Positions 45,357-48,057 of a DNA stretch of 64,000 nucleotides are shown one piece after another. This stretch comes from an uncultured Chloroflexia bacterium (GTDB lineage Bacteria > Chloroflexota > Limnocylindria > Limnocylindrales > CSP1-4): positions 864,001 to 928,000 of the forward strand of contig CAVXPZ010000001.1 in NCBI GenBank assembly GCA_963763775.1, given 5' to 3'. Made by a program: the position numbers and the translations under genes. The notes below the pieces were generated by a model. That model had not been told where the DNA came from. It ran no database searches and worked only from the letters and a program-made list of their open reading frames with translations. Each line of letters starts with the position of its first letter. The first letter of the stretch is position 1.

Positions 45357-45570
45357 TCGTCCTTCTCCTTGGTTCGTTCCGGAACGTCGGTCGGGACATC
45401 CGATCGAGCGTCCGTGGCGATGCCGCCATGCTCGGCTCGGGCCTTGATGCCGCCATCGGGCCCGGTCCCTACCCGTCCACCGGGTGCCGCCTCAATCTCC
45501 GGGGCACGCCGGGGCCGGGTACCTTATGGCCGATGCAACGGTCCCGAGGGCGCGACGGTTCTACGAGGTG

Positions 45571-46173
45571 ATGGACACCGACAACCAGCTCGTCGACGCC
45601 CTCGCGAGCGACCTGGATGGCACGTTCGAGGCCCTCGTGCTCGCGCATCAGGACCGCTGCTACTCGATCGCCCTGCGGATGCTCGGCGACCCCGGTGCGG
45701 CGGAGGAGGCGGCGCAGGACGCACTCGTCCGCGCGTACCGAGCGCTCGGCACGTACGAGCCGGCACGGATCCGCGAGCTTCGCCTGCGGCCCTGGCTGGC
45801 CACGATCGTCCTCAACCTCTGCCGCACGCGGCTGGCCCGGCGGCGGACGGCGGGCCGCGAGCCGCTCTCGCTCGACCTCGAGGGCTCGACGCTCCCGGAG
45901 CCGGTCGCGACCGATGCGTCGGCATCGCCGACGGCCGTCCTCGACCGCCGCGCCGAACGGGACGAGTGGGCCGCCCTCCTGGCCGGATTGCCGCCGGCGT
46001 ACCGGGCCGCCGTCGTCCTGCGTCACGTGGACGGCCTGTCCTATCCCGACCTCGCCCGAGCCCTCGACCGACCCGAAGGCACTGTCAAGGCCCAGGTCCA
46101 CCGGGGCCTGGCGATGTTGCGCACGGCCTACGAGGCGGCGGACCGCGTCGCCTGCCAGGAGATGACCGCATGA
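45571..46173 (+). CDS. ECF (sigma-70 group 4) RNA polymerase sigma factor
   Basis: AEEAAQDALVRAY, PWLATIVLNLCR (region 2); LPPAYRAAVVLRHVDGLSY...EGTVKAQVHRG (region 4); start 45526-45571. Confidence 0.94.
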   Translation: MDTDNQLVDALASDLDGTFEALVLAHQDRCYSIALRMLGDPGAAEEAAQDALVRAYRALGTYEPARIRELRLRPWLATIVLNLCRTRLARRRTAGREPLSLDLEGSTLPEPVATDASASPTAVLDRRAERDEWAALLAGLPPAYRAAVVLRHVDGLSYPDLARALDRPEGTVKAQVHRGLAMLRTAYEAADRVACQEMTA

Positions 46174-46963
46174 CCCTCGACGACCGCACGCTGGAGGCCG
46201 CCATGGCCGACCTGGCGACCACCGCGCCGCCGACGCTCGCCTCGAACACGCTCGTCGCCGTGGGCCTGGCCGACCACATGGCCCGCATGGACTCGGTGAT
46301 CGGGCCGCTGTACGTCGCCTGGAACGGGCTCGGCGTGAGCGCGGTGGAGTCCGAGGAGTTCGCGGCCACCCACGCCGCGCGGACCGGGCGTCGCGTGTAC
46401 CCCGGTGGACGCGCTGCCGCCGGACCTCGCGGCCGCGATCCACCGCCGCCTCGCCGGCGAGCGCGCACGTGCGGATCGACCTCGACCTGCGCGGCCACAG
46501 CGACTTCGAGCGCGACGTCTGGCGCAAGGCCCTCGACATCCCGCGCGGCGAGGTCCGGCCGTACGGCTGGATCGCGGGCGAGATCGGCCGGCCGAAGGCC
46601 GTCCGTGCGGTCGGGACGGCCCTGGGGCACAACCCCGTGCCGCTCATCGTGCCGTGCCACCGGGTGGTCCGCACCGACGGCACGATCGGGCAGTACTCCC
46701 TCGGCGGCCCCGAGAACAAGCGGACGATCCTCGCGTCCGAAGGCCTCGACCCCGACGCGATGGAGGCCGCCGCGCGGCGCGGAGAGCGGCTCATCGGCTG
46801 CGCGTCGACGGGCATCGTGTGCTGGCCCACGTGTCGGACCGGCCGGCACATGCTGCCGAAGAACCGACGGCCGTTCCGGTCTCTCGCGGCCGCCGCGGAC
46901 GCCGGCTACCGGCCGTGCAAGGTCTGCCGGCCCGCGTCCGGCGCGGGATCCGTCGCCGCCTAG
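46170..46963 (+). CDS. ogt: O6-methylguanine-DNA methyltransferase with C-terminal Ada Zn-binding domain (frameshifts ~46405, ~46465)
   Basis: IPRGEVRPYG, RAVGTALGHNPVPLIVPCHRV; C-terminal STGIVCWPTC...GYRPCKVCRP. Confidence 0.9.
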
Positions 46964-47047
46964 GGCAGCCGACCCGGTCACCCTGTTGTCCTACTGGACT
47001 AGGCCAACCGGCCCGCGTACACTGCCCTGATCTTGGACCAACCACCT

Positions 47048-48057
47048 ATGCCAACGGCGCCGCCTGCCCGCCCGAACCAGGGGCCGGGGATCTGGCTCGG
47101 GATGCTCGTGCTCTACCTCGTGTGGGGCTCGACCTATCTCGGGATCGCGGTCGCGGTGGACACGATCCCGCCGTTCGTGATGGCGGCCGCGAGGTTCGCG
47201 CTCGCGGGCCTGGTCCTGCTGCTCTGGTCGCTCGCCCGCGACCGCGGGACGCTTCGCCTGGCCGTCGCGGCGCGAGTGGCGGGACTCGGCGATCGTCGGC
47301 GCGCTCCTGCTCGGCGGCGGCATGGGCATGGTGGCGTTCGGCGAGCAGACGATCCCGTCCGGCATCACCGCCCTCCTCATCGCCCTGATGCCCGTCTGGG
47401 TCGCGGTGTTCGGGGCCGTCCTGCTCGGCGAGCGGCTCCCGCGGCTGGCGGTGATCGGCATCGCGATCGGGTTCGTCGGTGTCGCCGTCCTGGCCGGCCC
47501 GTCGGCGTTCGGCGGGACCGGCGCGCTGGAGCCCACTCGGGCTCGTGGCCGTGCTGCTCTCGCCGATCTGCTGGTCGCTCGGGTCGCTCTTCGCCTCGCA
47601 CCGCGCGACGCTGCCCCGCCAGCCGCTGATGGCGACGAGCGCGCAGATGCTGACAGGCGGCGCGGTGCTGGCGATCATGGGCCTCGCGGCGGGCGAGTTC
47701 GGGCGGTTCGATCCCGCCCAGGTGTCGAGCGAGTCGATCACCGCGTTCCTGTACCTGACGATCATCGGCAGCCTGCTCGCCTTCACGACGTACGGCTGGC
47801 TCCTTCGCAAGGCGCCGCTGCCGCTCATCGCGACCTACGCGTATGTGAACCCGATCGTCGCCGTCGCGCTCGGGGCGCTCGTGCTGCACGAGCCCATCGA
47901 GCCGAGGACCCTCGTCGCGGGCGCGATCATCATCGCCGGGGTGGCGCTCATCGTGACCGCGCGCGGTCGGATGGCGCGGCCGCGGACCATCGCGGAGCCC
48001 GCGGACGTCGGCATCGAGGCCGCGCCCGCGGCCGTCCGGCCCGCCACCAGCGCGTAG
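47048..48057 (+). CDS. EamA/DMT transporter (frameshifts ~47260, ~47535)
   Basis: YLVWGSTYLGI, IPSGITALLIA, TYAYVNPIVAVALG. Confidence 0.9.

Follow-up and report, generated by a model that had tools for sequence, protein, structure and literature searches.

A repair enzyme in the position of an anti-sigma factor

What holds an extracytoplasmic function (ECF) sigma factor in check when the gene that follows it, in the place usually taken by an anti-sigma gene, encodes a DNA repair enzyme? This question is raised by a two-gene operon in a 64,000-nt stretch of contig CAVXPZ010000001.1 (assembly GCA_963763775.1) from an uncultured Chloroflexia bacterium. The whole stretch is referred to as the window, and positions are counted from its first letter. 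The source genome comprises 3.30 Mb in 4 contigs with a completeness of 87%, and the nearest protein relatives are named Candidatus Limnocylindrales or Chloroflexota in their sources. The first gene of the operon encodes an ECF sigma factor, and the second encodes a partner protein that joins an O6-alkylguanine-DNA alkyltransferase (Ogt) to an Ada-type zinc domain. We consider it probable that the locus is a self-activating two-gene switch, in which the sigma factor is held by the repair enzyme and freed as the enzyme is consumed. The partner protein is very likely the inhibitor of the sigma factor, a predicted role that is well supported by homology, gene linkage, and a model of the complex. 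Alkylation as the releasing signal, which we infer, has an even chance of being correct.

The sigma factor consists of sigma2 and sigma4 domains only (PF04542, 53.7 bits; PF08281, 57.4 bits). It belongs to the ECF (group 4) sigma-70 factors, scoring 77 bits against TIGR02937 (cut-off, 42.9), and none of the NCBIfam equivalogs exceeded its own cut-off for this protein. Translation was assigned to the ATG at 45571 (MDTDNQL...) rather than to the GTG at 45484 that opens the longest open reading frame (ORF), because close relatives share the MDTD start, which in one such relative, L004, is directly preceded by a stop codon. At the junction of the two genes, the TGA of the sigma gene (46171 to 46173) and the ATG of the partner gene (46170 to 46172) overlap as ATGA. 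No anti-sigma family was detected among the genes flanking the pair.

Both self-alkylating modules of the partner protein appear intact. Its Ogt core was recognized by PF01035 (104.9 bits; E = 2e-30) and TIGR00589 (95.6 bits; cut-off, 46.4), and the PCHR motif, with the acceptor Cys162 encoded at 46655 to 46657, is invariant in 32 of 32 alignment rows. The closest structural match of the enzyme body was Mycobacterium tuberculosis OGT (4wx9; E = 4.4e-12, 38% identity over 157 aligned columns). The C-terminal part belongs to the methylphosphotriester-repair domains of the Ada type (PF02805, 41.4 bits against a cut-off of 23; E = 1.4e-10), with its four zinc-site cysteines invariant in all 32 rows and weak fold matches to 1u8b (N-Ada) and 1adn. 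Neither the fragments from the window nor P0004, an intact homolog, matched a helix-turn-helix (HTH) family, which sets the protein apart from the Ada/AdaA regulators with their AraC-type HTH, and the order of PF01035 followed by PF02805 is the reverse of that in Escherichia coli Ada. The homologs nearest to the partner fragment are intact and 90 to 94% identical over its last 164 residues. Most of the 120 homologs listed are 261 to 272 aa long, and all of them have PF01035 followed by PF02805. The overlap of stop and start codons, the lack of another adjacent anti-sigma gene, the intact PCHR domain, and the four-Cys Ada domain without an AraC HTH in an order opposite to that of Ada had all been pointed out in a preliminary description made from the sequence alone, and all of them hold.

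Conservation of the sigma-Ogt pairing

The pairing of sigma and Ogt genes is conserved far beyond chance. Three hundred genomes of the phylum were searched with P0004, and the best 30 loci were taken. In each of the 29 foreign Chloroflexota loci, a sigma homolog 42 to 64% identical to that of the window lies directly upstream in the same orientation; alignment A1 of the sigma factor comprises 29 rows. Both start codons could be assigned at 26 loci. The overlap amounts to 4 nt in 10 of these, 8 nt in 7, 20 nt in 5, and 1 nt in 1, and the remaining gene pairs are separated by 3, 5, or 16 nt. A second scan used one genome per species and retained the best 80 loci. In 77 of these the sigma gene lies directly upstream, and the remaining 3 start at a contig end (77 of 77 assessable). 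Record titles of the 80 loci name Chloroflexota, Acidobacteriota/Thermoanaerobaculia, Acidimicrobiia, Dormibacterota, and others, with at least 8 named Nonomuraea records; cultured carriers exist among the latter in the form of several named strains. An Actinomycetota sample centred on a Nonomuraea genome gave a sigma gene in 28 of 28 assessable loci whose Ogt has the N-terminal extension described below, 26 of them with the full-length architecture.

The partner protein begins with a segment that precedes the Ogt fold, and its occurrence was compared with that of the sigma gene in 20 hand-picked Chloroflexota regions from the P0004 search. All nine Ogts encoded just downstream of a sigma gene carry such an extension, about 25 to 50 residues before the first Ogt strand; the Ada domain is absent from five of them (L117 to L120 and L122). 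Twelve Ogts are free of the extension (L001, which is the second copy of the window genome, L113 to L116, L121, L125 to L128, L131, and L132). Not one of these has a sigma gene directly upstream, and four of them do bear an Ada domain. Thirty-six Actinomycetota Ogts without an Ada domain were likewise picked by hand, all from published genomes, 16 with a profile start at residue 27 or before and 20 with a start at residue 33 or beyond. A sigma gene was directly upstream in 12 and 17 of these, respectively. The sigma-linked Ada-less Ogts of actinobacteria have an extension of about 45 aa and of a different flavour (L.RL...A-rich...GLLDVAY), and the unlinked ones mostly begin 7 to 16 residues ahead of the fold. 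The N-terminal extension tracks the sigma gene: sigma-linked Ogts have it, and most unlinked ones do not. Linkage does not require the Ada zinc domain, since some sigma-linked Ogts lack it. Genomes flagged as unpublished in the phylum and Actinomycetota searches, and whole-sample tallies in which they are counted, contribute to none of these conclusions.

Some loci show further arrangements. At L123 and L124 (genomes G122 and G275), an extension-free Ogt-Ada-zinc gene is followed by an ECF sigma gene and then by a second Ogt gene with a short extension, and L129 and L130 have another Ogt-Ada-zinc gene downstream of the sigma-linked one. Eleven loci (L017, L019, L020, L022, L080, L084, L086, L094, L095, L098, and L106) hold a second, more distant ECF sigma homolog, which is divergently oriented just upstream of the sigma-Ogt operon. 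A classical contrast is provided by L116 (G109:C282), where an ORF of 493 aa that opens with an Ada-zinc domain precedes a plain Ogt gene and no sigma gene is nearby.

An anti-sigma remnant at the N terminus

The preliminary description had likened the N-terminal segment of the partner protein to the helix pair of class I anti-sigma domains, and longer orthologs bear this out. A profile search with alignment A2 against 1.84 billion representatives returned 987 proteins at E ≤ 1e-30. Among the best 150, the 10 with the longest unmatched N termini were tested for the zf-HC2 domain (PF13490), which was matched by 7 of them, 6 at or above the cut-off. In alignment A5, the zf-HC2-bearing homologs read helix I, then HxxxCxxC, then L..L...aP..L...V, and the extension of about 39 aa in the window family aligns with the segment after HxxxCxxC, that is, with about the last half of the domain only. 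This alignment relates the extension by homology to the class I anti-sigma domain of the zinc anti-sigma (ZAS) subclass. The zinc-binding signature of that subclass (HxxxCxxC; PF13490) is missing from the window protein, which has no Cys in residues 1 to 39.

The longer form is itself linked to sigma genes. A metagenome scan with the long homolog P0148 kept 80 loci, and the 25 whose match begins at residue 1 or 2 were examined. HxxxCxxC is present in all 25, and a sigma factor of the same clade (57 to 153 bits with the A1 profile) is encoded directly upstream in 21. Three of the loci without one have less than 220 nt of upstream sequence. Because of alignment A5 and these sigma-linked homologs with zf-HC2, we conclude that the window extension is what remains of a class I anti-sigma domain after the loss of helix I and the zinc motif. 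A comparison of residues 1 to 42 with the protein atlas gave at best 0.86, to short clusters of the Methyltransf_1N type; this was below the counting level and provides no more than a lead.

Model of the sigma-partner complex

The monomer model of the partner protein has a predicted local distance difference test (pLDDT) value of 88.4 and a predicted template modeling score of 0.82. Helix 5-14 of the extension is of low confidence (pLDDT 55 to 69), as would be expected for a segment that becomes ordered on a partner. For the complex, the window sigma factor was modeled with P0004, each with its own purpose-built alignment. The interface score (ipSAE) was 0.85 in each of three runs, and the best of 3 controls scored 0.00; among 80 solved complexes, 58 attain the mark used in this test, as do 2 among 110 mismatched pairs. 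Agreement between the runs extends to at least 95% of contacts, and the pLDDT of the partner is at least 87. The modeled interface involves only residues 4 to 33 of the partner, which face residues 16 to 57 (sigma2.1-2.2) and 129 to 155 and 180 to 187 (sigma4) of the sigma factor. We take these surfaces to be the ones that an ECF sigma factor needs for the core polymerase. The model supports binding and predicts that the tail is inserted between sigma2 and sigma4, although the pass may partly reflect likeness to known structures, because solved sigma/anti-sigma complexes exist. With these data, three further elements of the preliminary description can be judged. The sigma-ogt linkage it had marked for a survey was found in all assessable loci of the three samples described above, an extension in the place of the N-terminal segment it had singled out is carried by all nine sigma-linked Ogts of the hand-picked Chloroflexota regions, and modeling of the complex, which it had proposed, made that segment the only predicted contact.

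A different view is that the two genes are merely cotranscribed, with the sigma factor driving ogt in its operon while being controlled elsewhere, e.g., at the level of its transcription, and with the tail serving the enzyme in folding, dimerization, or DNA binding. The published view of the ECF122 group, which is listed without a cognate anti-sigma factor and with the mechanism unknown, at least in the brief mention in PMC8999054, would agree with it. So would the failure of the tail alone to match an anti-sigma family and, in the monomer model, the confident packing of helix 23-30 against the body of the enzyme. We regard this explanation as very improbable, since the tail shares homology with the latter half of the zf-HC2 domains found in sigma-linked orthologs, is sandwiched between sigma2 and sigma4 in a complex scoring 0.85 against 0.00, and accompanies sigma-linked Ogts while being mostly absent from unlinked ones.

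Promoter and output genes

The preliminary description had proposed an ECF-type promoter, TGCAAC-N17-GGTTC, ahead of the sigma gene. Occurrence of the pattern [TC]G[CT]AAC-N16-17-[GT]GTT in the 100 nt that precede the sigma start substantiates this proposal: it was found in the window and in 19 of 28 foreign loci, compared with 0 loci for the reversed or reverse-complemented pattern and a mean of 0.014 of 28 over 500 shuffles. The family consensus reads TGCAAC(C)-N16-xKGTT. Counted from the ATG, the motif begins at position -37 in the window and in 10 of the foreign loci. In the window, it stops 9 nt before the sigma ATG. With only 9 to 10 nt between motif and start codon, the sequence implies that the transcript of the sigma operon would be leaderless or nearly so. 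The pattern is absent within 100 nt from 8 loci of one Chloroflexota family (L021, L023 to L025, and L028 to L031), and L032, with a deviating -10 part, also lacks it. The upstream regions of the same 8 loci share a different conserved sequence.

Within the genus of the window organism, a strict form of the pattern occurred 29 times in 16 genomes, compared with 11 times for the reversed control. In ten congener loci it lies 3 to 4 codons ahead of the sigma start. An extra match precedes a stand-alone, PCHR-bearing Ogt paralog of 176 aa (L212:161-722, genome G560). A search of 81 family genomes revealed paralogs of this type in 5 of them (L239 to L243), and all five also hold the sigma operon. 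The motif stands 7 to 10 nt before the paralog ATG in 6 of 6 genomes holding this second ogt, once as the variant CGTAAC. For a third type of Ogt paralog, the motif was upstream in 0 of 4 cases. As far as visible from these sequences, the output of the sigma factor would consist of alkyltransferase genes. The preliminary description had advised scanning for the motif upstream of alkylation-repair genes; this bore fruit for the second ogt in all six relatives that hold one and failed in the window genome, where no credible second target was seen.

Several other matches were discarded. A loose form of the motif matched 10 times in the window genome, close to the chance level estimated by hand, and no regulon was drawn from it. 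Matches in a sister family with small genomes (g9) equaled those of the reversed control and were ascribed to chance, and a motif at L235 was dismissed because it lies inside a coding region. One of the loose matches in the window genome, CGCAAC-N16-GGGTT (G000:C1:1404534, minus strand), lies outside the window and 18 nt ahead of an ORF of 165 aa, the beginning of which resembles a Vsr mismatch endonuclease by eye.

How the sigma factor might be released

The following sequence of events would accommodate these findings. The ECF sigma factor would transcribe its own operon from a TGCAAC-N16-xKGTT promoter. Translational coupling of the second gene would then yield a soluble anti-sigma factor with a single-turnover repair protein as its body. 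Its acceptors would be Cys162 of Ogt and the Zn(Cys)4 site of the Ada domain, and its first ~35 residues, lodged between sigma2 and sigma4, would sequester the sigma factor one to one and keep it off RNA polymerase. Alkylated DNA would consume the partner and thereby free the sigma factor, either by a change in shape or by degradation of the alkylated protein. The freed sigma factor would direct synthesis of more sigma factor and alkyltransferase, including the second ogt in some relatives, until fresh protein recaptures it. Degradation of the consumed protein, tail included, would be the simplest route of release. Alkylated human MGMT is destabilized and degraded. A stricter version, in which the irreversible transfer of a single alkyl group to Cys162 from damaged DNA, and/or to the Ada zinc site from a phosphotriester, frees one sigma factor and the cell counts consumed protein one for one and replaces it, falls somewhat short of an even chance in our judgment.

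Several observations weigh against the switch. The predicted interface is away from the Ogt and Ada domains, with no structural route for a signal visible. The putative alkylation-release step is the weak link because the modeled interface excludes both acceptor domains. Residues 1 to 77, which include the extension, matched nothing in Pfam or NCBIfam at E ≤ 0.1, and the profile of the extension (A4), compared with all solved chains, gave a best E value of 0.51, to unrelated proteins and to no anti-sigma factor; of the ancestral domain, helix I and the zinc motif have been lost. Linkage has exceptions: at four Actinomycetota loci (L138, L139, L183, and L185) no sigma gene was found next to Ogts with extension-like N termini, and one locus of the ZAS form (L277) has no sigma gene within 1500 nt, which leaves 21 of 22 assessable loci linked. 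In the window genome, no second ogt of the L212 type was found at E ≤ 1e-30 and a completeness of 87%. The strict motif has two matches in this genome, one being the promoter of the operon itself and the other lying 106 nt ahead of an ORF of 275 aa; this number is at about chance level, and no wider regulon is seen there. In addition, the partner gene is broken by two frameshifts in this assembly.

The position of the interface bears directly on an alternative in which the partner inhibits the sigma factor but alkylation is not the signal. The pair would then act as stoichiometric feedback on the Ogt level or would respond to another release cue, for example, attack of thiol-reactive or oxidizing compounds on the Zn(Cys)4 site, such as zinc anti-sigma factors undergo. 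A tail-only interface suits this alternative, as do the redox-type HxxxCxxC zinc motif of the ancestral form and the Ada domain, itself a Zn(Cys)4 site. However, the window family has lost the ZAS zinc motif yet keeps PCHR and the Ada cysteines invariant, sigma-linked forms without an Ada domain exist, and the sole second target found is another alkyltransferase gene, which points to alkylation repair as the output. We consider this alternative unlikely and retain release by consumption of the repair enzyme as the preferred reading.

Frameshifts in the partner gene

The partner gene is read in three frames, its 794 nt amounting to 264 codons plus 2 nt. The two frameshifts noted in the preliminary description are each accounted for by one extra base in the window relative to three intact relatives. 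Contigs from four sequencing runs offered a partial check, the best share of this stretch in any run being only 0.14. Runs X1, X2, and X4 each have one contig in which the extra base at 46465 is absent; one of these contigs is a 92-nt piece with only 3 further differences. The first frameshift site (46399 to 46400) lies outside the coverage of the run contigs. The EamA-family transporter gene downstream is also split over two frames, with its N-terminal repeat in the ORF from 47033 to 47629 and its C-terminal repeat in the ORF from 47479 to 48057, and represents a further frameshift in this assembly. The combination of 4 contigs and 87% completeness is presumably typical of unpolished long-read assemblies. 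Because of the split EamA gene and these assembly statistics, we hold errors in the assembly to be highly likely and real frameshifts to be improbable.

Were the frameshifts real, the partner gene would be a pseudogene in this organism, and the sigma factor would be unregulated or the module decaying. Two one-base insertions within 66 nt of each other could be taken as a sign of decay, and the sequencing runs, with their best share of 0.14, are too poor to check them. Nevertheless, the neighboring transporter gene is broken in the same way in an assembly whose statistics resemble unpolished long-read work, contigs of three runs lack the extra base at 46465, and the frame is otherwise fully conserved, with 92 to 94% identity to intact relatives over residues 97 to 263. 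A pseudogene is, on balance, distinctly improbable. The features of the locus are collected in Table 1, which also lists a divergent 271-aa ORF located about 215 nt upstream of the sigma start; it has a hydrophobic N-terminal stretch and no Pfam family.

Table 1. Coordinates of the sigma-Ogt operon, its parts, and adjoining genes in the window
Feature	Position (nt)	Strand	Remarks
Divergent ORF, 271 aa	44541-45356	-	
ECF-type promoter TGCAAC-N17-GGTTC	45534-45561	+	TGCAAC 45534-45539; GGTTC 45557-45561
ECF sigma factor, 200 aa	45571-46173	+	sigma2, residues 22-92; sigma4, residues 132-184
Anti-sigma-like Ogt/Ada-zinc gene	46170-46963	+	263 aa when read through two one-base insertions
N-terminal extension, residues 1-39	46170-46286	+	two short helices (5-14 and 23-30); predicted sigma-binding module
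First frameshift, one-base insertion	about 46399-46400	+	relative to three intact relatives
Second frameshift, one-base insertion	about 46465	+	relative to three intact relatives
O6-alkylguanine-DNA alkyltransferase core, PF01035	46502-46744	+	PCHR at 46652-46663
Ada-type Zn(Cys)4 domain, PF02805, CX3C...CX2C	46781-46933	+	Cys codons at 46820, 46832, 46916, and 46925
EamA-family transporter gene	47049-48057	+	split over two frames

Implications

To our knowledge, it is largely unknown how alkylation repair is induced in bacteria without Ada, and the module offers a concrete and testable answer. If the proposed switch is correct, a suicide repair enzyme serves as both sensor and inhibitor of a dedicated sigma factor, and damage is gauged by consumption of the repair protein. 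Chloroflexota, Actinomycetota, Acidobacteriota, and other soil phyla would then share an Ada-independent adaptive response to alkylation. A mechanism would be supplied for an ECF group listed without one, anti-sigma signaling would gain a new cytoplasmic input, and a 35-residue remnant of an anti-sigma domain would suffice for inhibition. The window version suggests that a zinc-less two-helix remnant can hold an ECF sigma factor, which is relevant to the design of minimal orthogonal sigma/anti-sigma switches.

Comparison with known systems

Class I ZAS proteins and their ECF sigma factors form pairs such as RsrA-SigR, ChrR-RpoE, and RslA-SigL. The window operon resembles them in the position of the anti-sigma gene and its translational coupling, in the longer orthologs that carry zf-HC2 with HxxxCxxC, and in the binding of the tail between sigma2 and sigma4 that the model predicts. 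It differs in that only the last part of the domain is kept, as two short helices in about 35 aa without a zinc motif, and in that the output domain is a suicide DNA-repair enzyme instead of a membrane anchor, a cupin, or nothing.

The closest published counterpart is ECF122. PMC8999054, in a one-line mention, describes this group of the 2021 classification (Casas-Pastor et al.) as sigma factors with a conserved 6-O-methylguanine DNA methyltransferase neighbor, gives an example from the actinobacterium Cellulomonas, and lists the group without cognate anti-sigma factors and with the mechanism unknown. The main text of PMC7826278, which presents that classification, makes no mention of ECF122 or methylguanine, and its supplements may say more. 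Apart from the one-line mention of ECF122 in PMC8999054, and with the same proviso about those supplements, searches of the literature found nothing on an Ogt-type anti-sigma factor. Going by that mention, the sigma-Ogt neighborhood is already in print as ECF122, and the association itself is not new. The window shares its neighborhood, a sigma gene with an adjoining methyltransferase gene and no separate anti-sigma gene, and the same pairing is present in 29 of the 36 hand-picked Ada-less Actinomycetota loci, whose Ogts are probably the published ECF122 type. The difference is that the window methyltransferase itself carries an anti-sigma remnant.

A FastTree tree of 173 sigma sequences was rooted at its midpoint, with only the other 38 ECF-like ORFs of this genome as an outgroup. 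One clade, of weak support (0.49), contains 95 of 97 Ada-linked sigma factors, including that of the window, and a separate clade (support, 0.87) contains 32 of 38 mostly actinobacterial sigma factors linked to Ada-less Ogts. A single clade of all Ogt-linked sigma factors was not recovered. Because its clade is separate from that of the sigma factors linked to Ada-less Ogts, the window sigma factor may not be ECF122 proper.

The enzyme body finds its counterpart in M. tuberculosis OGT (4wx9 and 4bhb), solved as a protein of 165 aa in which both the N-terminal extension and the C-terminal Ada domain are lacking. E. coli Ada (1adn, 1u8b, and 1sfe), in contrast, also unites both self-alkylating modules in one protein, and CX3C...CX2C and PCHR are intact in the window protein as well. 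Ada is arranged as Ada_Zn_binding, AraC HTH, and Ogt, whereas the window protein has the reverse order and dispenses with the AraC HTH. Irreversible self-methylation as the inducing signal is probably a logic shared by the two. In Ada, the methylated protein binds promoters, whereas the output of the window system would be the release of a sigma factor.

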